Shown here: piece after piece, positions 10,926 to 31,416 of the stretch
How positions within the stretch are numbered: the first letter of the stretch is position 1
Layout of the letters: each line of letters opens with the position of its first letter
IMG/VR virus record: IMGVR_UViG_3300020388_000010
Length of the DNA: 64,000 bases
Origin: a virus
Taxonomy: Duplodnaviria; Caudoviricetes
Reading direction: 5' to 3' (one strand)
The notes under the pieces: model-generated
Database searches by the model: none
What the model was told of the DNA's origin: nothing
The model's input: only the letters and a program-made list of their open reading frames with translations
Translations under genes and position numbers: made by a program

Positions 10926-11462
10926 ATGGTTGATATAGTTCCGAATGTTGTTTTTAAAACAAGAGTAAAAGATAATGATTGCACGGATTGTCCAAACCCA
11001 TATAAGTGGGAAGATAAATCTACTGATGATTATTTTAGTGGTAAGAAAGTTGTTTTGTTTTCTTTGCCTGGTGCATTTACACCAACTTGTTCAACATATC
11101 AATTACCAGATTTTGAAGCTATGTATTCACAGTTTAAAGAAGAAGGAATAGATGACATTTATTGTATGTCTTGTAATGATGCATTTGTAATGAACAAATG
11201 GGCAGAACAACATAGTTTAGAAAATGTTAAAGTTATACCAGATGGTAATGGAGATTTTACTTCTGGAATGGGTATGTTAGTTAAAAAAGAAAATTTAGGT
11301 TTTGGTGATAGGTCGTGGAGATATGCGGCTATAATAAATGATAAAAACATTGAACATCTTTTTATTGAACCAAACAAAAAAGATAATGCAGATGATGACC
11401 CATATGGTGAAACCTCACCACAAAATATACTTCAGTATATTAAAAGTAATAAAGGAAAGTAA
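10926..11462 (+). CDS. Peroxiredoxin (Prx5/Redoxin family)
   Basis: FSLPGAFTPTCS, NDAFVM and RSWRYA motifs. Confidence 0.93.
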   Translation: MVDIVPNVVFKTRVKDNDCTDCPNPYKWEDKSTDDYFSGKKVVLFSLPGAFTPTCSTYQLPDFEAMYSQFKEEGIDDIYCMSCNDAFVMNKWAEQHSLENVKVIPDGNGDFTSGMGMLVKKENLGFGDRSWRYAAIINDKNIEHLFIEPNKKDNADDDPYGETSPQNILQYIKSNKGK

Positions 11463-11463
11463 A

Positions 11464-12435
11464 ATGAGAAACTTCTTATTTGTATTTACATTATTATTTG
11501 CAACAACTTTGTTTGCACGAGATCAAATTAAAATAGTAGGTAGTTCTACTGTATATCCATTTGCAACAACTGTTGCAGAACGATTTGGTAAGTCTAGTGG
11601 ATTTAAAACACCAGTAGTTGAGTCAACTGGTTCTGGTGGTGGATTAAAACTTTTTTGTGCTGGTATGGGAACACAACACCCAGACATAACAAATGCATCA
11701 AGAAGAATAAAACAAACAGAAATAGATAATTGTAAAAAGAATGGTATCAAAGATATTACAGAAGTTAAAATAGGATATGATGGTATTGCGATTGCAAACT
11801 CAAAAAAAGGTGTTAACTTTCATTTATCAACAAGAGATTTATATCTTGCACTTGCAAAAGATGTACCAGCAGACATTGATGGTAAAACTGTTAAACCTAA
11901 TCCATATAAAAAATGGATAGAAATAAATCCAACATATCCAGACTTACCTATTGCTGTTTATGGCCCACCTCCAACATCTGGTACTAGAGATGCACTTAAT
12001 GAACTTGGTATTGAAAGGGGTTGTAAAACATATCCAGAGAGAAAAAAACTTAAAGAAAAAAATAAAGAATTATATAAATCTGAATGTCGTGCAATAAGAA
12101 CAGATGGTGTATATATAGAAGCTGGTGAGAACGACAATCTAATAATTGAAAAATTAATAACAAACCCAGATTCATTAGGTATATTTGGTTATTCTTTTTT
12201 AGATGAGAATAGAGATAAAGTAAAGGCTGCAACAATTAATGGTGTTAGTCCAGAGTTTGAATTAATTAGTAATGGTACATATCCTATTTCTAGGTCATTA
12301 TGGTTTTATGTAAAAGATGCACACGCAGCTGTAATTCCAGGCATTAGAGAATATACAAAAGAATTTACATCTGATAGAGCAATAGGTGATGACGGATATT
12401 TGATAGGTAAAGGACTCATACCACTTAATGATTAA
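11464..12435 (+). CDS. pstS: Phosphate ABC transporter substrate-binding protein
   Basis: Signal peptide, then RDQIKIVGSSTVYPF, ESTGSGGG, GPPPTSGTRD and YPISRSL. Confidence 0.93.
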   Translation: MRNFLFVFTLLFATTLFARDQIKIVGSSTVYPFATTVAERFGKSSGFKTPVVESTGSGGGLKLFCAGMGTQHPDITNASRRIKQTEIDNCKKNGIKDITEVKIGYDGIAIANSKKGVNFHLSTRDLYLALAKDVPADIDGKTVKPNPYKKWIEINPTYPDLPIAVYGPPPTSGTRDALNELGIERGCKTYPERKKLKEKNKELYKSECRAIRTDGVYIEAGENDNLIIEKLITNPDSLGIFGYSFLDENRDKVKAATINGVSPEFELISNGTYPISRSLWFYVKDAHAAVIPGIREYTKEFTSDRAIGDDGYLIGKGLIPLND

Positions 12436-14058: not shown

Positions 14059-14290
14059 AAAATACATACACATAAATCAACACAAGATTCGTGCAAATAA
14101 AAAACACGGAACAAATGAAGCAGTAATTACTATTAAAGAAGGTCGTAAAAATACTTATTGTCATAGTGTTGAAATACTAGGCCCATCTAAATTATTTTAT
14201 GGTGGTAATGATAAACCAATTCTACCTTGTGGTGCAAGAGTTGTTATTGAAACAGAAAGTGATTTAAAGATTGATAATAAAGACTATTGA
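14051..14290 (+). CDS. Conserved phage hypothetical protein
   Basis: IHINQHKIRANKK...LPCGARVVIET motif. Confidence 0.65.
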   Translation: MTKKYIHINQHKIRANKKHGTNEAVITIKEGRKNTYCHSVEILGPSKLFYGGNDKPILPCGARVVIETESDLKIDNKDY

Positions 14291-15065
14291 TTGGAAAGTT
14301 GCAACTCTTTTCGTTCAAAAAAGACACTATAGTGCAGTTATGCCTAGACTAACTAAACATTGGTTAGGTTGTTATCAAAATGAAAAGTTAGTTGGGGTAA
14401 TAACTTTAGGTTGGGGAACTAGACCTAAACATACCATACAAAAAATATTTCCAGAATTAGATACAAAAGATTATTATGAAATAGGAAAAATGTGTATGGA
14501 TGAAGATATGCCTCGTAATTCTGAATCTCAAATGTTATCAAAAACATTAAGTTATATACGAGAAAATTTATCCAATATAAAATATCTTTATACTTGGGCA
14601 GATGGTATTGTTGGTAAGCCTGGATATGTTTATCAATCTGCAAATTTTTTATATGGTGGATTTGTTTGGACAGATGTTTATATTTTAGATGGAGAAAAGG
14701 TACACCCAAGAACATTACAAGGACAATTACCAAATGATGATGGAATGAAGTATGGACACAGACCCAATTCCGAACAACTAAAAGAAATGAAAATTACTAG
14801 AGTTTTTGGTAAACAGTTTCGTTACATATATCCTATGAATAAAACATATAGAAAGTATCTTAAAAAATCTACTATGAATTGGAATTTAGACTATCCAAAA
14901 GATAAAGACTTGGAATGGAAAGTTAAAAAACCAGAGGACGAGAAATATACTTTGACAAAGGTAATGCCGTTCAAACAAGATAGTGGTAAAGTAAAACATA
15001 ACTCTACTAATGTAAATAAAGTTGCAGATAAGTATGGAACAGCAAGTTTGGAGGAATTCATTTGA
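14271..15065 (+). CDS. Mom-like (GNAT-fold) DNA base-modification enzyme
   Basis: RHYS, LVGVITLG, EIGKMC, PRNSES and TWAD...GYVYQSANFLYGG follow the Mu Mom family pattern. Confidence 0.75.
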   Translation: MIIKTIDWKVATLFVQKRHYSAVMPRLTKHWLGCYQNEKLVGVITLGWGTRPKHTIQKIFPELDTKDYYEIGKMCMDEDMPRNSESQMLSKTLSYIRENLSNIKYLYTWADGIVGKPGYVYQSANFLYGGFVWTDVYILDGEKVHPRTLQGQLPNDDGMKYGHRPNSEQLKEMKITRVFGKQFRYIYPMNKTYRKYLKKSTMNWNLDYPKDKDLEWKVKKPEDEKYTLTKVMPFKQDSGKVKHNSTNVNKVADKYGTASLEEFI

Positions 15066-20401: not shown

Positions 20402-20644
20402 ATGAAAAAAATAGATAATGTTAACCACCCACCACATTACAATCAACAAAAAATTGAATGTATAGATGCAATAGAATGTGCAACTGGTGATGGTTTTGAA
20501 AGCTATCTTCAAGGTAATATATTAAAATACATTTGGAGATATAATTATAAAAATGGTACTGAGGACTTAAAGAAAGCCCAATGGTACTTAAATAAACTTA
20601 TTGAAGTGAAGGAACTAAATAATGAAATTGTCAAATCAGACTAA
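20402..20644 (+). CDS. DUF3310 family protein
   Basis: DNVNHPPHY, IECIDAI, GNILKYIWRY..KNGTEDLKKAQWYL. Confidence 0.88.
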   Translation: MKKIDNVNHPPHYNQQKIECIDAIECATGDGFESYLQGNILKYIWRYNYKNGTEDLKKAQWYLNKLIEVKELNNEIVKSD

Positions 20645-21296
20645 AGAGATATTAAAAAACTATTCTCAAATCAATCAAAACATTTTAATCAAACAAGGTA
20701 ATCAGTTAAAAACTGTATCTGCAATGAAAAACATTGTTGCATCTGCAACTGTTCCAGATGAGTTCTCACAAGAGATTCCTATCTACAATCTAAATGAATA
20801 TCTTGCAGCTATGTCTTTATTTAAAGAACCAATTTTATCTTTTAATGATAAGTATATGACTATCGCAGAAGAAGATAATAGTTCAAGTTGTAAGTATCAT
20901 TATTCTGACCCATCTGTTATCGTTACAGTTGATAAAGAAATTAGTATGCCATCTGTTGATGCAGAGGTTGATATCACAGAAGTAAATCTAAAGAAAGTTA
21001 TTACTGCAGCTGGCACATTAGGTGTATCTGATTTAGTATTAACTGGTCAAAAAGATAGTACAATACAACTAAAAGTAAAAGATAAAAAGAACAAAGCATC
21101 AAATGATTTTGCAATCACAATCGGTAGTGGTGCATCTGCATTTTTTGAATTTTATTTCAAAGTAGAAAATCTAAAACTATTGCCTGGTGATTATAAAGTA
21201 CAAGTTTCATCTAAAGGTATTTCTTATTTCCAACATAAGAATTTAGATGTATCATATTTTATTGCATTAGAACCAGAATCAACATACAATTCATAG
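20622..21296 (+). CDS. gp45: Sliding clamp
   Basis: MKLS..T..ILKNYSQIN, FKVENLKLLPGDY and YFIALE motifs. Confidence 0.95.
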   Translation: MKLSNQTKEILKNYSQINQNILIKQGNQLKTVSAMKNIVASATVPDEFSQEIPIYNLNEYLAAMSLFKEPILSFNDKYMTIAEEDNSSSCKYHYSDPSVIVTVDKEISMPSVDAEVDITEVNLKKVITAAGTLGVSDLVLTGQKDSTIQLKVKDKKNKASNDFAITIGSGASAFFEFYFKVENLKLLPGDYKVQVSSKGISYFQHKNLDVSYFIALEPESTYNS

Positions 21297-24105: not shown

Positions 24106-26595
24106 ATGGATTTTTATACTAATGTAGTGCAATGGGGTAATTTTCTTTTAGTTCGTGGTGTTGATAAAAATCAAAGAGTAAGTTTTAGATTAAAATACAA
24201 ACCAACTTTGTTTGTTCCAGTAATGAAACAAACGGATTGGAAAACTCTTGATGGTAAATCAGTAACACCATATCAATTTGATTGTATAAAAGATGCAAAG
24301 GACTTTTTTCTCAAATACGAAAGTCAGCCTCATCTTGTTCACGGACTAAACAGATTTGCATACACATATATTTCAGATACATTTCCACAGAAGGTAAACT
24401 GGAACATTGATAAACTATTAATTATGACGATTGATATTGAGGTTCAATGTGAGAATGGTTTTCCTAATCCAGAATCTGCAATAGAACCTTTACTTTCTAT
24501 TACAGTTAAAGACCAACAATCTAAAAAAATTATAGTGTGGGGTATTCAACCTTACGAGAATACAAGAGAAAATGTTACTTATATTCGTTGTCCTAACGAA
24601 CACGATTTGATTATGGAGTTTATGTCTTTCTGGACAAAGAACTATCCAGATGTTATTACTGGTTGGAATACAGACTTCTTTGATATTCCTTATCTTGCAA
24701 ATAGAATCAAACAAGTTTGTGGTGAAGATAAAATGCGAGAACTATCACCTTGGAAAAATGTTAGTGCAAGAAAAATATATAGTATGGGTAGAAATCATTT
24801 GATGTATGACATTATGGGTGTATCTCAATATGATTATTTACAACTCTATCAAAAGTTTACTTACACCAGACAAGAATCATACAAGTTAGATTATATTGCA
24901 AGTGTAGAGCTTGGTGAAAAGAAAGATGAAAATCCATACGAAACATTTAGAGAGTGGTATGAAAAAGACTTTCAATCTTTCATTGATTATAATATTCAAG
25001 ATGTGGAAATAGTTGACAAACTAGAAGACAAGATGGGTTTGATTGACCTTGCACTTACTATGGCCTATGAGGGTAAAGTAAATTATTCAGATGTGTTTGG
25101 TCAAGTTAAATATTGGGATATTTTAATCTATAACTTCTTGAGAAAAAGAAAGATTGTTATACCACAGAAAAAGTCTTATAACAAAAACGAACAATATGAA
25201 GGTGCATATGTAAAAGAACCGATTACTGGTTTACATAAGTGGGTTGTATCATTTGATTTGAATTCACTATATCCACATTTAATTATGCAATATAATCTCT
25301 CACCAGAAACATTATTGAAAAGTAAACATCAAGACATTACAGTTGATGATATGTTAAAAGGTATTAAACTAGACATACCAGATAGAACTACTATGACACC
25401 AAATGGTGCATTGTTTAGAACAGATAAAAAAGGTTTCTTACCAACTATGATGGAAGAGTTATACAATGAACGAGTGACTTACAAAAAGAAAATGTTATCT
25501 GCACAACAAGAATTTGAAAACACAAAAGACAACAAGTATAAAAAACTGATAAGTCGTTATAACAATATTCAGATGGCTCGTAAGATTTCTTTGAACTCTG
25601 CTTATGGTGCAATAGGTAATCAATATTTTCGTTATTACGATAAAGCGATTGCAGAGGGTATTACAAAGAGTGGTCAATTATCTATTCGTTGGATTGAAAA
25701 CAAACTTAACAAATATCTAAACAATGTTTTAAAAACAGATGATGATTATGTGATTGCATCTGATACCGACTCTGTTTATTTGACTATGGATAAACTTGTT
25801 AGTGAAACAATTAAAAGTGATAATGCACTTAGTAAAACAATAAACTTTCTAGACAAGGTTGCATCAGAATCTATTGAACCATACATTACAAAATCGTATG
25901 ACGAACTTAAACAATACACAAATGCATATGCAAATAAGATGTTTATGAAACGAGAAGTGATTGCAGACAAAGGTATTTGGGTTGCAAAGAAAAGATATAT
26001 TCTAAATGTTTGGGATAGTGAAGGTGTATCATACAAAGAAGCAAAGTTGAAGATGATGGGTATTGAAGCTGTCAAGTCATCAACGCCTGCAATGTGTAGA
26101 CAAAAGATTAAAGATGCACTTGAACTTATAATGACAAGTGATGAAAAAGAATTAAACAAGTTTGTAATTAATTTTAGAGAAGAGTTTCTTAAAGTAAAAC
26201 CAGAATTGATTTCGTTTCCTCGTTCAGTAAATGGTTTATCAAAATACTTTGATAGTGGAACAACATTTAAAAAGTCAACACCTATGCATATCAAAGGTGC
26301 ATTGATATACAATCATAAGATAAAACAAAATAAACTTATAAACAAATACCCTTTGATACAAGAGGGTGATAAGATTAAGTTTGTTTATTTAAAACAACCT
26401 AATCCATTTACTTCAAATGTAATCACATACATTACTAAACTTCCTAAAGAATTTGATATACACAGTTTTGTTGATTATGATATACAGTTTGAAAAAGTTT
26501 TCATTGACCCCTTGACATTAATTTTAAATAGTATAAAATGGAATATAGATAGAACTTATGGAACACAAGGTAACTTAGAGGATTTTTTTGGGTAA
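24106..26595 (+). CDS. gp43: DNA polymerase, family B
   Basis: DIEV exonuclease motif; SFDLNSLYP, KISLNSAYG, SDTDS, KKRY. Confidence 0.99.
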   Translation: MDFYTNVVQWGNFLLVRGVDKNQRVSFRLKYKPTLFVPVMKQTDWKTLDGKSVTPYQFDCIKDAKDFFLKYESQPHLVHGLNRFAYTYISDTFPQKVNWNIDKLLIMTIDIEVQCENGFPNPESAIEPLLSITVKDQQSKKIIVWGIQPYENTRENVTYIRCPNEHDLIMEFMSFWTKNYPDVITGWNTDFFDIPYLANRIKQVCGEDKMRELSPWKNVSARKIYSMGRNHLMYDIMGVSQYDYLQLYQKFTYTRQESYKLDYIASVELGEKKDENPYETFREWYEKDFQSFIDYNIQDVEIVDKLEDKMGLIDLALTMAYEGKVNYSDVFGQVKYWDILIYNFLRKRKIVIPQKKSYNKNEQYEGAYVKEPITGLHKWVVSFDLNSLYPHLIMQYNLSPETLLKSKHQDITVDDMLKGIKLDIPDRTTMTPNGALFRTDKKGFLPTMMEELYNERVTYKKKMLSAQQEFENTKDNKYKKLISRYNNIQMARKISLNSAYGAIGNQYFRYYDKAIAEGITKSGQLSIRWIENKLNKYLNNVLKTDDDYVIASDTDSVYLTMDKLVSETIKSDNALSKTINFLDKVASESIEPYITKSYDELKQYTNAYANKMFMKREVIADKGIWVAKKRYILNVWDSEGVSYKEAKLKMMGIEAVKSSTPAMCRQKIKDALELIMTSDEKELNKFVINFREEFLKVKPELISFPRSVNGLSKYFDSGTTFKKSTPMHIKGALIYNHKIKQNKLINKYPLIQEGDKIKFVYLKQPNPFTSNVITYITKLPKEFDIHSFVDYDIQFEKVFIDPLTLILNSIKWNIDRTYGTQGNLEDFFG

Positions 26596-27787
26596 TTATT
26601 TTAGATATACATTAGACGATTTAGAAAAGTCTGCAAATAGAAAACTATTTAATTTTATCAGCTTCTTTGCTGGTGGAGGTGGTTCTTCTTGTGGATATAA
26701 ATTATCTGGTGGTGAATGTTTATTTGTAAATGAGTTTCAACAAGTTGCAGTAAATGATTATCTTGCAAACTTTCCAAACACACAACATATCTGTGGTGAT
26801 ATTAAAAATGTCACTGGTCAAAAGATTATGGAAATGACTGGATTAAAGCCTGGTGAGTTAGATATATTAGATGGTTCACCACCTTGTCCACCATTTAGTA
26901 TGTCTGGTACAAAACAAAAAGGTTGGAATCAAGAAAAAACTGCATATGGTATGAAACAAAAAAACATTGAAGATTTAACTTGGGAACAAATTAGAATTGT
27001 TGGTGATTTAAAACCTAGAGTTGTTGTTTGTGAAAATGTTAAAGGTTTAACAATGGATTATGCAAGAGATCATTTAAATAGAATGGTTAAAGATTTTGAA
27101 TCACACGGATATCATACAGTATGGAGAGTTTTAAAAGGACACGAACACGGAGTTCCACAAAAGAGAGAAAGAGTTTTTATAGTATCAGTTAGAGAAGATG
27201 TATTAGATGATATAGGTTTACCTTTTATGTGTTTAGATAGTTCTATATTTCCAGACCCAAAAGAAGAAAGATATAATATTAAAGATGCAATATATGATAT
27301 ACAAAAGACAAATAAAAATATATCTGAAGCATTTGAATTAAAAGAGTCTATGAAGAAAAGTGCTAAATATAAGTGGTTAAAAAGATTACAAAAGAATCCA
27401 GACAAAGTTATGTCTGTTGGTGATGATGTTGTCGGGCCTTGGTATAGAAAAGTAATTGAACATAGAAAGAAGTGGGGTAAAAGTGAATGGAAAGAAAAAC
27501 ATAGTTTTTATCAATCAAGAAGAGTGCCTTGGAATCAACCAAGTCATACTCTATCAGAACAAGGATTAAGACAATCTCTTGCAGTTCATTTACACCCAGA
27601 AGAAGATAGAGTTTTTACTACTATTGAGGCTGCAAGAATAATGACATTACCAGAAGATTATAAACTTGTTGGTAAATTAGATGACAACCTTGCGAGGATA
27701 GGGTTGATGGTTGCACCTTTACAATTACATTATCTATCAAAAAAGATTTATGAAAATATCCTAAAACCATATAAGGAGACAAAATGA
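26588..27787 (+). CDS. DNA (cytosine-5) methyltransferase
   Basis: FFAGGGG (motif I), GSPPCPPFS (IV), ENV (VI), PQKRERVF (VIII); TTG start after GAGGA. Confidence 0.93.
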   Translation: MGNYFRYTLDDLEKSANRKLFNFISFFAGGGGSSCGYKLSGGECLFVNEFQQVAVNDYLANFPNTQHICGDIKNVTGQKIMEMTGLKPGELDILDGSPPCPPFSMSGTKQKGWNQEKTAYGMKQKNIEDLTWEQIRIVGDLKPRVVVCENVKGLTMDYARDHLNRMVKDFESHGYHTVWRVLKGHEHGVPQKRERVFIVSVREDVLDDIGLPFMCLDSSIFPDPKEERYNIKDAIYDIQKTNKNISEAFELKESMKKSAKYKWLKRLQKNPDKVMSVGDDVVGPWYRKVIEHRKKWGKSEWKEKHSFYQSRRVPWNQPSHTLSEQGLRQSLAVHLHPEEDRVFTTIEAARIMTLPEDYKLVGKLDDNLARIGLMVAPLQLHYLSKKIYENILKPYKETK

Positions 27788-28764
27788 AAAAAATAGTATT
27801 AGAAAAAGATTATGGTAAGAAAGAAACATTTGAAAAATGGAATGGTAAATTCTTAGATGATTCATCTTATGATAAAGTTTACAAAGTTACACAAAAAGAA
27901 GATTTAGGAATAATGAAACCAGTAAGGTCATTAGATGGTTCTGATGTTCCCCTTGCATATGTTGTAAACAATGTATATCCTAATGATGATATTAGAGATG
28001 TTCTCACAACAATAGAAGATACATCTACAATGAGAGCAAATTGTTCTGGGCCTATTGATAAAGAAGAAATGAAGAAAAAAGGTTTGATAGAGGGTGAACA
28101 TTATAAATTAAGAACACCAAACTCTTATTATGTAAAAACCAAATCTGGTAAATGGGGTATGATTGCATACAGTAATGAAATACATTCAGTAATGATAGGA
28201 TATAAAAGAGGAAGATTTACTGGTGCAATAGATTCATCTGGTTGGTGTAAAGATAATAAAGAGAGATGGGAAAGACTTCAAGAGATATCTAAATGGAATG
28301 AGATTGCATTTAAGAAAGCAAACGAACAAGTATACAAATCTCAAAAGAGTTTTGCAGATAATAACATAAAACCAGAACATAGAGTTGGTGGTGGTATATT
28401 TACAACACTTTCTGCAAATAGATATTCTGCATATCAATCTACAAAGATGTCTGCACATATTGATAGTGGAGATACAGATGCTGGACTTACATCAATGTGC
28501 GTTTTCAGAGAAGGTGATTATGAGGGTGCATACTTAGTGTTTCCTAGATATGGAGTTGCTCTTGATGCACCAGATAACTCAGTAATCATTGCAGATAGTA
28601 ATGAAGTACACGGAGTTACAGAGATAAGAGGTTCTGGACAAAGGTTTAGTTGTGTTGCATATTGTGATAGAAGACTCGCAACAGTAGGTGTTTATGGTAA
28701 ACAAGAAAAACTTATTGGTAAGTATGCAGCTAAAGAAAGTGGAAACTTAGAAGAATTTATGTAA
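27784..28764 (+). CDS. TET/JBP-family 2OG-Fe(II) dioxygenase
   Basis: AHIDSGD (HxD), GAYLVFPRYGVALD, EVHGVTEI (H), RFSCVAY (R); overlaps the C5-MTase stop. Confidence 0.8.
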   Translation: MKKIVLEKDYGKKETFEKWNGKFLDDSSYDKVYKVTQKEDLGIMKPVRSLDGSDVPLAYVVNNVYPNDDIRDVLTTIEDTSTMRANCSGPIDKEEMKKKGLIEGEHYKLRTPNSYYVKTKSGKWGMIAYSNEIHSVMIGYKRGRFTGAIDSSGWCKDNKERWERLQEISKWNEIAFKKANEQVYKSQKSFADNNIKPEHRVGGGIFTTLSANRYSAYQSTKMSAHIDSGDTDAGLTSMCVFREGDYEGAYLVFPRYGVALDAPDNSVIIADSNEVHGVTEIRGSGQRFSCVAYCDRRLATVGVYGKQEKLIGKYAAKESGNLEEFM

Positions 28765-28868
28765 CTACACATTTTGCAGACCCTTATATAGTGGTATTAT
28801 TGAGAGAGTGTGTTATATTAAAATAGAATCACAATTAAGTGATATCCATTAAAACAAAAGGAGTTAAG

Positions 28869-29855
28869 ATGGAAATTAAAAAAAAGGCAATATCAGCCTC
28901 AGAAGAAATATTAGGATTTAATCCTAAATCAAAAGAAGAAGATATCTTTAGAGTTGTAATGACACCAAAAATGGCAAGGTATATTCTTAATAATCATAAT
29001 AAACATAACAGAAAGTTTGTTCCAGCTCAATTAAAAGCAATAAACCTTAGTGTAGACAGACATAACTGGTTACACACTGGTGATACTTGTGCATTTGATA
29101 CAACTGGCAATTTAACTGAGTTTCAACATAGACTAGAAAATATTGCAGCTGAAAGAAAAAACAGAGTTGTTTGGATTGCAACTGGTGTTAGAAAAGATAG
29201 TTTTGAAAAGGCTGCACCAGCAAAAAACCGAACTAAGTTTGATGTTGTATGGCGTTATGAAAAAAGTGCAACAAAAGATGAGGTCACTACCTTAGAACAA
29301 GTTTTAAGAATGAGAAAAGGGAAGGACAAACAATCTATTGATACCGAAACTTTAACAATGGTAAATGCACTAAGTTTATTTAGAGTATGGAAAGAATATA
29401 TTCGTATAGGTATGAACATAACCAATAAATTTTTTGAAGATAAAAAAGTTAGAAGATTTTTACCTTGGCAAAGAATTTTAAATGCTTGGGCAACAATTTT
29501 AGTCTTTCAAGGTAAAGATGAAATACCAAAAAACTTTTTATCACTACTTAAAACTCATCTCACAACAACAAAAAAAGTTCAACTCTTTACAGAAATGAAT
29601 GAGTATTTTCTTGGAGATGAGGGTAAAGGTGTCGGTTGGATTACTGGAACAAAAAAATCTGAACAGATGTTTTATATGTTATGTAAAGCCACAGATAGAT
29701 TTTTAATCGCACCAGAAGGTGATTGTGAGTTCGGTTTAAGTCTTGCAGAATCTAATCACACAAATATGCTTCAACAGAGTTCAACTTATAGAAGTTTTTT
29801 AATGAATCCTCAAGGATTAAAATTAAAAACTAAAAACATAGTAACTTTATTTTAG
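28869..29855 (+). CDS. Hypothetical protein with ParB/DGQHR-like N-terminal domain
   Basis: MTPKMARYIL...NR...W..TGD...GNLTEFQHRL; AAGGAG RBS before ATG 28869. Confidence 0.55.
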   Translation: MEIKKKAISASEEILGFNPKSKEEDIFRVVMTPKMARYILNNHNKHNRKFVPAQLKAINLSVDRHNWLHTGDTCAFDTTGNLTEFQHRLENIAAERKNRVVWIATGVRKDSFEKAAPAKNRTKFDVVWRYEKSATKDEVTTLEQVLRMRKGKDKQSIDTETLTMVNALSLFRVWKEYIRIGMNITNKFFEDKKVRRFLPWQRILNAWATILVFQGKDEIPKNFLSLLKTHLTTTKKVQLFTEMNEYFLGDEGKGVGWITGTKKSEQMFYMLCKATDRFLIAPEGDCEFGLSLAESNHTNMLQQSSTYRSFLMNPQGLKLKTKNIVTLF

Positions 29856-29858
29856 ATT

Positions 29859-30383
29859 ATGATTATAATGATTAGTGGTATACCTTGCTCTGGCAAAACC
29901 ACATTACTTAAATCTATAATAAAAGACTTGGGTTCATATGAAAATTGTGAACCCACTTCTTTATTTAAATGTCAAAAATTTAAAGATGTTCTTGTAATAG
30001 GTCAATATCCAGAAAATGAAACATTTGGTGGTACTGACAGATTATCATATGGAACAATTAGTAAGTTTCAAGATTTTATAAACACACAATCAAAACAATA
30101 TAAACACATTATCTTTGAGGGTGATAGGTTCACAAATAATATTGAGTGGGTACTTGACAAACACCAAAGTATAGTGTATATTCTAATAGTAAGCTATGAA
30201 GAAGAAAATAAAAGACACACTTTGAGAAAAGACAATCAAAGTGAAACTTGGTTAAAAGGAAGAAGAACCCAAATAGACAATATACAAAAGAATTTAAGTC
30301 TTATGGGAAGATTACAGATTAGAGATACTTCAGATGGTATCAATACTGTAAAGGGTGAAATTATGGAGATACTGAATGCCTGA
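29859..30383 (+). CDS. P-loop nucleotide kinase-like protein
   Basis: GIPCSGKT Walker [16 protein letters not shown]. Confidence 0.75.
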
Positions 30384-31416
30384 TTTTTTAAAAGAAGTTA
30401 TCAAAACAACTGGTAACGAATATGCATCATTAGTTTCAGACGGAGTTGGAGCTGGTGATGTAGATGAATTTATTGATACTGGGTCATATGCTTTAAATGC
30501 ATTATTATCTGGTTCAATAAATGGTGGACTTCCAGCAAATAAGATTACTGCAATCGCTGGTGAAAGTGCAACTGGTAAAACATTTTTTCTGATGGGTATG
30601 TGTAAAAACTTTCTGGACAAAAATCCAGAGAGTGGTGTCATATACTTTGAAAGTGAAAGTGCGATTACTAAACAAATGATTATTGATAGAGGTATTGACC
30701 CATCAAGAATGGTTATACTTCCAGTAACAACAGTACAAGAATTTAGAACTCAATCATTGAAAGTTCTAGATAGCTATATTAATCAAGAAGAATCTATTCG
30801 TAGACCATTATTTCTTGCATTAGATTCACTTGGTATGTTATCAACAACAAAAGAAGTTGAAGATACTGCTGAGGGAAAAGAAACAAGAGATATGACTCGT
30901 GCTCAAGTTCTTAAAGCTGCATTTAGAGTGTTGACTTTAAAACTTGGTAAAGCAAAAGTACCTATGGTTGTAACGAATCACACATATGATGTTGTTGGTT
31001 CTATGTTTCCAACAAAAGAAATGGGTGGTGGTTCTGGATTAAAATATGCAGCTTCTTCTATTGTATATCTTTCTAAAAGAAAAGAAAAAGAAGGAACAGA
31101 AGTTGTAGGTAATATTATACATTGTAAAAACTTTAAATCAAGACTTACCATTGAAAACAAAATGGTAGATGTTAGACTAACATATAATAAAGGTCTTGAT
31201 AGATATTATGGATTACTTGAACTTGCAGAAAAATATAAAGTATTCAAAAAAGTTTCAACAAGGTATGAATTACCAGACGGTTCAAAACAATATGGTAAAA
31301 CTATATTGAATGACCCAAAGAAATATTTCACTAAAGATGTTATGGCCATCTTAGATGAATGTGCAAAAAAGGAATTTAGATATGGTGGAACAGAAAGCGT
31401 TGAAGAAAGCGAATGA
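30376..31416 (+). CDS. uvsX: RecA-like recombinase UvsX
   Basis: [28 protein letters not shown]. Confidence 0.96.

Follow-up and report, generated by a model that had tools for sequence, protein, structure and literature searches.

The 64,000-nt stretch of DNA analysed here (the window; IMG/VR virus record IMGVR_UViG_3300020388_000010) belongs to a marine T4-like phage of the Melnitz/pelagimyophage type. Between a gp43-type family B DNA polymerase and the UvsX recombinase it encodes a C5-cytosine DNA methyltransferase (MTase), a TET/JBP (5mYOX) Fe(II)/2-oxoglutarate (2OG) dioxygenase (hereafter TET), a protein that we call ORF3 and a P-loop kinase, and the list of open reading frames (ORFs) places the whole region on the plus strand. 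The reading that we favour, with little more than even confidence, is that of a post-replicative cytosine-modification cassette in which the MTase and TET are joined by a kinase that would act on 5-hydroxymethylcytosine (5hmC) in DNA, with ORF3 as an exchangeable companion. A methylase–TET–kinase cassette has already been published as a prediction (Burke 2021, PMC8256090), and the window is a further member. What is new here is the tie between the kinase and the pathway, drawn from reciprocal co-occurrence, Rosetta-stone fusions and homology to 5-hydroxymethyluracil DNA kinase (5-HMUDK), together with a mapped recombination hot-spot and the decoupling of ORF3 from the modification genes.

Organization of the locus

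The genes called in the initial annotation all proved real and correctly placed, apart from the start of ORF3 (Table 1). The ORF coordinates also bear out the overlaps noted there, which measure 8 nt between the MTase start and the polymerase stop and 4 nt between the TET ATG and the MTase stop; the UvsX start overlaps the kinase stop by a further 8 nt. The MTase must begin at the TTG at 26588, since no ATG or GTG lies upstream of its conserved N terminus, and a GAGGA stands before this codon with a 5-nt spacer. The frame of ORF3 is open from a GTG at 28839, but translation most likely starts at the ATG at 28869, to judge from an AAGGAG 5 nt upstream and from its aligned homologues, all 19 of which start at or within a few residues of this Met or reach further upstream. 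This start leaves a gap of 104 nt between TET and ORF3. Promoter-like matches within the gap (28765–28868) are not above chance, and a scan for sigma-70-type promoters across 26–31 kb was uninformative (31 sites, against 26.3 ± 5.3 in shuffled sequence).

The sole megablast match in 50,697 phage records was the MTase–TET pair of Methylophilales phage Melnitz, a cultured OM43 phage, at 76.5% nucleotide identity. The gene order in Melnitz is polymerase, methylase, TET, a 427-aa gene, kinase, two small genes and RecA/UvsX. Its methylase, TET (gp6) and kinase share 76%, 78% and 58% amino acid identity with those of the window, and its 427-aa gene (gp7) shows no relation to ORF3. The Melnitz dioxygenase and kinase are annotated as hypothetical proteins; only the methylase is discussed in the Melnitz paper, as a type II methylase.

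Table 1 Features of the locus between the polymerase and UvsX genes in the window
Feature	Position	Strand	Basis and remarks
gp43-type family B DNA polymerase	24106-26595	+	PF00136/PF03104, phrog_262; left anchor of locus
C5-cytosine DNA methyltransferase (MTase), 399 aa	26588-27787	+	PF00145; TTG start, GAGGA ribosome-binding site
TET/JBP (5mYOX) Fe(II)/2OG dioxygenase, 326 aa	27784-28764	+	PF12851
Intergenic gap and left recombination junction	28765-28868	+	blastn breakpoints
ORF3, 328 aa	28869-29855 (frame open from GTG 28839)	+	no Pfam match; phrog_5931, function not known
P-loop kinase, 174 aa	29859-30383	+	PF18751, slightly below cut-off
Right junction and UvsX recombinase	30365-31416 (UvsX 30376-31416)	+	blastn; PF00154, phrog_97; right anchor

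The methyltransferase–TET core

The MTase and TET are clear members of their families with intact catalytic residues. The MTase matches PF00145 over positions 1–323 of 324 (E = 8e-55; 187 bits, cut-off 22), and its translation contains FAGGGG (motif I, FxGxG), SPPCPPFS (motif IV, with the catalytic Cys), CENVKG (motif VI, ENV) and PQKRERVF (motif VIII, QxRxR). TET scores 44.5 bits against PF12851 (curated cut-off 34.9), and its iron triad H225-x-D227/H276 and 2OG-binding R287 are invariant among 62 distinct relatives. The order polymerase–methylase–TET is kept almost without exception in 60 IMG/VR loci with TETs 51–99% identical to that of the window, and across about 100 related marine phage loci the two modification genes adjoin with few exceptions, as they do in cultured Melnitz. 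An adjoining, co-oriented C5-methylase gene, the neighbour that marks the 5-methylcytosine (5mC)-specific 5mYOX clades A/B, is thus present in the window and in nearly all of its relatives.

Phage dioxygenases of these clades oxidise 5mC to 5hmC only, and in biochemical work C5-methylase/TET pairs made Gp5mC and then only 5hmC (Burke 2021, PMC8256090). Family matches, intact motifs and the invariant pairing accordingly support the view, put forward in the initial annotation, of the MTase and TET as a post-replicative module for conversion of 5mC to 5hmC. The phage C5-methylases of clades I/II in the same study methylate GpC, preferentially GpC[C/T] (PMC8256090). From these enzymes and from the palindrome pattern described below, a GpC context is the probable specificity of the MTase.

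Evidence that ties the kinase to the pair

Both motifs by which the kinase had been recognized as a P-loop enzyme, GGTDRLS and EGDR, are present and are invariant within its family, which comprises 1442 representatives at 50% identity. Many relatives at 52–94% identity carry a precomputed label of PF18751 (Ploopntkinase3), a name for which we found no paper in the literature, and fused relatives score 40 bits against this model. Comparison of profiles relates the family to a DNA kinase: hhalign aligned it with the M6-type 5-HMUDK profile over 173 columns (Prob 95.6%, E = 1.1e-8), with the GxY, GxD(R) and EG motifs in register. The E. coli controls Tmk and Gmk, run at unmatched profile depth, aligned over 26 and 61 columns (Prob 12–33%), covering the P-loop or a short stretch. 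PF18748, the 5-HMUDK model, matches the M6 (65.8 bits) and ViI (386 bits) enzymes and nothing in Melnitz or in Caulobacter phage Cr30. We read the kinase as a remote full-length homologue of 5-HMUDK, in effect a sister family. Its AlphaFold2 (AF2) model has a predicted local distance difference test (pLDDT) score of 92.7, and its profile, when run against PDB sequences, matched the P-loop only.

Genomic context links the kinase to the same genes. Of the kinase-anchored IMG/VR loci, 38 extend 3.5 kb or more upstream, and of these 36 contain an MTase and 31 a TET. Five loci (L114, L126, L129, L132 and L152) are minimal MTase–TET–kinase cassettes with no gene between, and some such minimal cassettes are placed upstream of the polymerase. 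In P0415, a 1179-aa protein from a metagenome contig, the C5-methylase, TET and kinase form one polypeptide. In P0364 (894 aa, L082:6001-8685) the kinase is fused to radical-SAM and TET-associated glycosyltransferase (TAGT) domains, and the gene adjoins an amino-acid:DNA transferase (AADT, PF18724) gene on more than 20 contigs, with a beta-clamp gene nearby.

Co-occurrence, domain fusions and 5-HMUDK homology together indicate that the kinase belongs with the MTase–TET pair, as had been supposed. The alternative role first offered for it, the recycling of modified deoxynucleoside monophosphates (dNMPs), is disfavoured by the full-length homology to a DNA kinase and by the MTase–TET fusion. On these grounds the most likely substrate of the kinase is 5hmC in DNA and not a nucleotide to be recycled. 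A predicted complex of TET and kinase scored 0.00, which speaks neither way.

In Cr30 (NC_025422), kinase and TET/JBP genes lie 7 kb apart. Both the kinase homologue there (L011:5989-6534; 33% identity, hhalign Prob 99.5%) and PHROG 800 bear the label 'terminase small subunit', probably a propagated mis-annotation.

A swap hot-spot between TET and UvsX

Between the end of TET and the beginning of UvsX lies a slot that is a hot-spot of recombination, at which genes are swapped. Two loci (L012 and L013) are 98–99.5% identical to the window in nucleotide sequence outside this slot, up to 28785 and again from 30365, and hold inside it about 4 kb with four other genes; homology to L014 likewise resumes at 30365 (blastn). 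L014, L015, L017 and L019, at about 81–96% nucleotide identity outside the slot, contain other gene sets within it. L018 keeps the kinase, at 95.7% nucleotide identity across the gene, and has an unrelated 393-aa gene in place of ORF3, and in L063 (about 81–83%) the slot is empty and TET leads directly into UvsX. The initial picture of the four genes as one conserved unit does not survive these comparisons, in which near-identical phages fill the ORF3/kinase slot with other genes.

Clustering recovered at least 18 gene families in the first position after TET. Slot genes include TAGT (C5, PF20691), GT1 (C42) and a nucleoside diphosphate (NDP)-sugar epimerase (C38); most of the others have no family match. 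The kinase is the commonest occupant: 35 TET loci reach 2.5 kb or more downstream, and of these 16 carry the kinase and 9 TAGT, with both in one locus and neither in 11. TAGT stands in the same slot of 9–10 related loci, and the nearest record, a 47-kb contig behind L013 (G001), has neither kinase nor TAGT. The position between TET and the kinase is taken by mutually unrelated families, namely ORF3, C3+C4, C7, C9 (Melnitz gp7), C35 and C45. The idea that twelve slot families are one fast-evolving family was rejected, as profile–profile comparison showed no relation among them, apart from C3 with C46 (Prob 68%) and C40 with C59, which match over 30 N-terminal residues. The breakpoints show T4-like marine phages swapping DNA-tailoring genes at a single hot-spot and keeping the methylase–TET core.

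A C5-methylase, slot gene and kinase with no TET within about 6 kb are found in L102, L105, L113, L116, L124 and L085. Neighbours in L105-type loci are MT-A70, a clamp-loader subunit, RegA and a RimK-type ATP-grasp protein; in kinase loci without TET, the 332-aa ORF that precedes the methylase was considered as a displaced TET and proved to encode a RimK-type ATP-grasp protein.

ORF3 is decoupled from the modification genes

ORF3 had been labelled ParB/DGQHR-like, of which the QHR motif stands and membership of the ParB/sulfiredoxin (Srx) group does not. The motif (TEFQHRL) is invariant in the homologues, and in the model it opens helix 96–104 after strands 84–87 and 92–94, like the GxxR-type motif of the ParB/Srx fold. 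At the level of sequence, ORF3 has no Pfam match, none of 20 family members matches a ParB-type Pfam model at E ≤ 1, and the ORF3 profile finds neither ParB nor Srx among PDB sequences. The fold signal is weak. The AF2 model is mediocre (pLDDT 66) and describes, at low confidence, a weakly ParB/Srx-like N-terminal domain followed by a helical C-terminal part. The top six Foldseek matches are ParB/Noc proteins, but at E values of 0.1–0.6. The exhaustive aligner VIA pairs residues 32–128 with Srx, SerK, pNOB8 ParB-N, PadC and Osa at Z scores of 4.0–5.5, a range common by chance. A shape search of the ESM Atlas returned only unnamed viral clusters with TM scores below 0.5, and the nearest named cluster has ParB_N in 13% of its members. 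ParB/Srx likeness is thus a weak lead, not a membership.

Homologues of ORF3 fall into 24 clusters, all unnamed and from marine metagenomes. Three divergent lineages have a member of the family exactly between TET and kinase, namely the window, L009/L010 (61% identity) and L148/L176/L177 (31%; hhalign Prob 100%). The family also occurs with no MTase, TET or kinase nearby, in at least eight IMG/VR loci and in metagenome contigs L004–L008; in these loci a DruA-like gene and a 171-aa gene precede ORF3, and L171 places it in the same polymerase–UvsX slot. The cyanophage S-RIM4 carries a homologue in a tRNA island, and its whole record is without TET and C5-methylase. Conversely, TETs 72–99% identical to that of the window occur in loci without ORF3 (Melnitz, L012/L013, L063). 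Swapped independently of the kinase in L018 and present where MTase, TET and kinase are missing, ORF3 is an exchangeable accessory with no fixed role in the pathway. The expectation that the last two genes would accompany the pair in other genomes therefore holds for the kinase and largely fails for ORF3. If the weak fold likeness is a guide, ORF3 is probably a DNA- or nucleotide-binding accessory of ParB/Srx type, able to serve different modification modules.

The trio of a DruA-like gene (PF14236, 33 bits), a gene for a 171-aa protein with a faint YunG match and an ORF3 homologue is seen in L171:3448-6005, L173–L175, L168–L170 and L003–L008, and may be another DNA-directed module that shares ORF3. 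In L053/L054:2343-3266, a distant homologue (34%) lies immediately upstream of the polymerase, with methylase and TET downstream of it, which shows the family moving around the replication module.

Clamp-type tails of polymerase and TET

The polymerase ends in a clamp-binding-type tail, ...GNLEDFFG (26560–26595), and the TET tail, ...GNLEEFM (28735–28764), resembles it. The motif xL[ED][ED]F[FLIM] ends only 3 of the 98 plus-strand ORFs of the window, those of the polymerase, TET and a Mom-family protein; the MTase, ORF3 and kinase lack it, as do all methylase tails of the related loci. The 99 TET relatives have 38 distinct tails, every one with the motif, and the polymerase tail is kept across 69 relatives. 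Over loci L012–L154 the two tails co-vary by lineage, ...ASLDSFFG on the polymerase going with ...GSLDSFF on TET, and ...GNLEDFFG with ...GNLE[ED]F[FLM]. This conservation and co-variation upholds the earlier observation of a polymerase-like clamp tail on TET. Given that its tail copies the clamp-binding tail of the polymerase, TET probably travels with the sliding clamp in the wake of the replisome. The gp45 clamp of the phage is encoded at 20622–21296.

The Mom-family protein (14271–15065, plus strand; PF25680, E = 3e-53; tail ...GTASLEEFI) is a second DNA-modification enzyme of the window.

Palindrome avoidance spares GpC sites

Avoidance of 4-bp palindromes is extreme in the window. ACGT, TCGA, CCGG and CGCG are absent (68, 74, 14 and 5 copies expected), CATG occurs once against 191 expected, and GATC 11 times against 186. 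The three highest ratios of observed to expected counts (O/E) among the sixteen 4-bp palindromes belong to GGCC (36 copies, 1.74), AGCT (96, 1.42) and TGCA (516, 1.14), the three that have a central GpC but no CpG, and the only G/C-containing ones that are not avoided. CpG has a rho of 0.39 in the window, CpG-containing 6-bp palindromes number 1 against 134 expected, and TTGCAA occurs 81 times against about 20 expected. In 60-kb samples, the O/E of GGCC is 1.37 in Melnitz, 0.23 in HTVC008M and 0.12 in S-RIM4, a comparison of two phages with the pair against two without, from different hosts; the whole records of HTVC008M and S-RIM4 lack both MTase and TET. In this comparison of pair-bearing and MTase/TET-free phages, GpC rho is 0.86/0.85 against 0.97/0.97.

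The GpC-related compositional mark reported in the initial annotation is therefore present in the form of GGCC, AGCT and TGCA spared among avoided palindromes. Together with the specificity predicted from the enzymology of Burke et al., the sparing of GpC palindromes fits a GpC-directed protective modification, and would be a sign of GpC-site protection legible from sequence alone.

Search for downstream transferases

At E ≤ 1e-5, the Pfam families listed for the other 63 plus-strand ORFs of the window (25 of 31 families for its first half) include no glycosyltransferase, and the window gave no match to custom profiles of TAGT, GT1, epimerase and AADT. The absence of a glycosyltransferase from the window, remarked on at the outset, thus stands. 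Among other genes, Pfam tallies between 33324 and 63602 include SoxY and SoxZ domains, PhoH, a cell-wall hydrolase, DUF6267 and an outer-membrane beta-barrel domain; the sulfur-oxidation carrier genes SoxY/SoxZ are unusual phage cargo. The first half of the window encodes a PstS-like PBP (11338–12435), a peroxiredoxin (10926–11462), Hsp20 and several small 2OG oxygenases.

Proposed pathway and alternatives

We propose that the MTase methylates cytosines of the phage DNA, most likely in a GpC context, a step for which the enzyme family is plain and the specificity is predicted. TET, probably carried by the sliding clamp behind the replisome, would then oxidise 5mC to 5hmC; here the family and catalytic residues are evident and the substrate is suggested by the invariant methylase partner. 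In a third step, the P-loop kinase would phosphorylate the hydroxymethyl group in DNA to give 5-phosphomethylcytosine, as either the end product or a leaving group for further substitution. ORF3 would stand outside the fixed pathway, as one of many alternative genes between TET and UvsX. The biological role of the product would most likely be to shield GpC-containing sites from host nucleases.

A bolder form of this proposal, which we regard as possible but doubtful, specifies the product. Either 5-phosphomethylcytosine at GpC would be a finished, negatively charged base, in the phages with a minimal MTase–TET–kinase cassette and in the window if ORF3 is no transferase, or the alternating genes between TET and kinase (ORF3, C3+C4, C7, C9, C35, C45; a dozen or more) would be a new, rapidly exchanged set of tailoring enzymes that convert the phosphate ester into varied cytosine adducts. 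In either case, if true, this would be a cytosine counterpart of thymidine hypermodification, chemically not yet seen.

Several findings weigh against the proposed pathway. The kinase falls 1 bit short of the PF18751 cut-off (26.0 against 27 bits) and does not match PF18748 at E ≤ 0.01, and its fold matches only generic nucleoside and nucleoside monophosphate (NMP) kinases (NRK1, UCK2, AK6, Gmk), so that structure does not fix the substrate. Kinase relatives P0300 and P0362 are fused to a low-molecular-weight or dual-specificity protein-phosphatase domain, a setting unconnected with TET. No TET match lies within about 6 kb in seven of the 38 informative kinase loci, and five of these seven carry a methylase, mostly followed by a slot gene and then the kinase (L102, L105, L116, L124, L085). 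The kinase is optional for the pair, as only 16 of the 35 informative TET loci carry it. We found no published experiment in the literature that demonstrates a 5hmC DNA kinase. A phmmer search of the six-frame ORFs of the window with the L082 AADT gave no match, and the Pfam tallies of the 63 ORFs contain no AADT (PF18724 and relatives). To these is added the small size of the palindrome comparison, two phages on each side and of different hosts.

The pathway might instead end at 5hmC, or at a mixture of 5mC and 5hmC, with the kinase and ORF3 as unrelated island cargo and the kinase acting on a nucleotide, nucleoside or small molecule, for example in dNMP salvage or sugar-donor supply. We consider this rather unlikely. 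It would suit a slot that behaves as a hot-spot with at least 18 different first genes and that can be empty, as in L063, as well as the nucleoside/NMP kinase-like fold, the phosphatase fusions, which reveal other contexts of the family, and locus L051, where the kinase lies between an NDP-sugar epimerase and TAGT. It sits poorly with the methylase found in 36 of 38 kinase loci, with the single polypeptide that joins kinase, MTase and TET and with a full-length profile homology that extends to 5-HMUDK and not to Tmk or Gmk; a post-replicative route, moreover, has no obvious need for a modified-dNMP kinase. A different departure from the favoured cassette concerns the base itself. That the dioxygenase oxidises thymine to 5-hydroxymethyluracil (5hmU), not 5mC, with the kinase an ordinary 5-hydroxymethyldeoxyuridine (5-hmdU) DNA kinase, seems to us very improbable. 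Most phage 5mYOX genes do lack a methylase, and their products are predicted to act on T; the kinase has kinship with 5-HMUDK, and a few kinase loci lack the TET-adjacent methylase order; yet the methylase here is translationally coupled to TET through the 4-nt overlap and is adjacent to it in nearly every relative, published T-dioxygenase clades have no adjacent C5-methylase, and the compositional mark falls on GpC sites.

The remaining alternatives give ORF3 a defined task. As a ParB-type activator or targeting factor of the dioxygenase, or as a servant of the modification machinery generally, ORF3 would explain its weak ParB/Srx-like N-terminal fold with QHR at a helix start after a beta-hairpin, and its nearest named ESM Atlas cluster; ParB homologues activate their cognate 5mYOX and often accompany P-loop kinases (O'Toole 2026, PMC13229309). 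We think this unlikely, as near relatives of the TET do without ORF3 and ORF3 occurs without any TET, and as the published ParB partners are structurally clear and have a dimerisation domain, whereas ORF3 lacks a ParB signal at the level of sequence; the published ParB-dependent subclass, furthermore, has no neighbouring methylase. Alternatively, ORF3 and the other genes between TET and kinase could each place a nucleophile onto the kinase-activated 5-phosphomethylcytosine and so give each its own final base. The placement of the ORF3 family in three divergent lineages and the resemblance of the unrelated slot families to the combinatorial tailoring genes of thymidine hypermodification speak for such tailoring. 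ORF3, however, has no similarity to AADT or to any transferase, its sole fold signal is ParB/Srx-like, it occurs in loci free of methylase, TET and kinase (at least eight from IMG/VR, L004–L008 and S-RIM4), and the minimal cassettes dispense with a slot gene; for ORF3 and its counterparts as a class we judge this role decidedly unlikely.

Relation to known systems

The closest published systems are the C5-methylase/TET clusters of marine metaviromes described by Burke 2021 (PNAS, PMC8256090), some of which contain a P-loop kinase and a ParB gene and for which phosphorylation of 5hmC was proposed (contigs 49, 76 and 88). These clusters share with the window a co-directional C5-methylase and TET, T4-like replication genes alongside (polymerase, clamp loader), a P-loop kinase in the vicinity together with a ParB-like gene, whose likeness is weak in the window, the proposed kinase step on TET-made 5hmC, the exchange of modules between phages and GpC-preferring methylases. 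They differ in that the assayed clusters end in glycosyltransferases, with the kinase branch a prediction only. The present analysis goes beyond them in placing the slot breakpoints to the base and in finding the cassette in a cultured phage. The methylase–TET–kinase pairing has been a prediction from metaviromes since 2021; Melnitz, a cultured phage with a cultured host that carries the same cassette, makes its chemical product directly testable on virion DNA.

The ParB-dependent phage thymine dioxygenases, 5mYOX176/ParB176 (O'Toole et al. 2026, PNAS, PMC13229309), likewise combine a TET/JBP dioxygenase with a neighbouring ParB-superfamily protein, for which the window offers the weakly ParB/Srx-like ORF3, and often with a P-loop kinase. 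They have no C5-methylase and act on T, and their ParB proteins are recognisable, carry the dimerisation domain and are needed by the cognate dioxygenase. In the window, by contrast, a C5-methylase adjoins TET, and ORF3 is absent from most loci with near-identical TETs and is also found without TET.

The T-even pathway to glucosyl-5hmC (gp42 deoxycytidine monophosphate hydroxymethylase, gp1 dNMP kinase and alpha/beta-glucosyltransferases) resembles the system proposed here in belonging to T4-like phages and in setting 5hmC-derived bases against host nucleases. That route is pre-replicative, operates on the nucleotide pool and replaces every C, whereas the route in the window, which has no glycosyltransferase, would be post-replicative and limited by sequence context.

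Thymidine hypermodification, in which a 5-hmdU DNA kinase (PF18748) is followed by AADT/aGPT-Pplase (Lee et al. 2018/2021, PMC8989533; NAR 2026, PMC13458397), offers the nearest chemical parallel to the proposed kinase step. In both, a small P-loop kinase installs, or in the window would install, a phosphate leaving group on a 5-hydroxymethylpyrimidine of already synthesized DNA; the window kinase aligns full length with 5-HMUDK, and a relative of it stands beside an AADT gene. In the window, the base would be cytosine, reached through a methylase and TET and not through a deoxyuridine monophosphate hydroxymethylase, and the kinase fails PF18748. The thymidine systems have AADT and none was found in the window, so the phosphate ester would there be either the end product or the substrate of a further enzyme.

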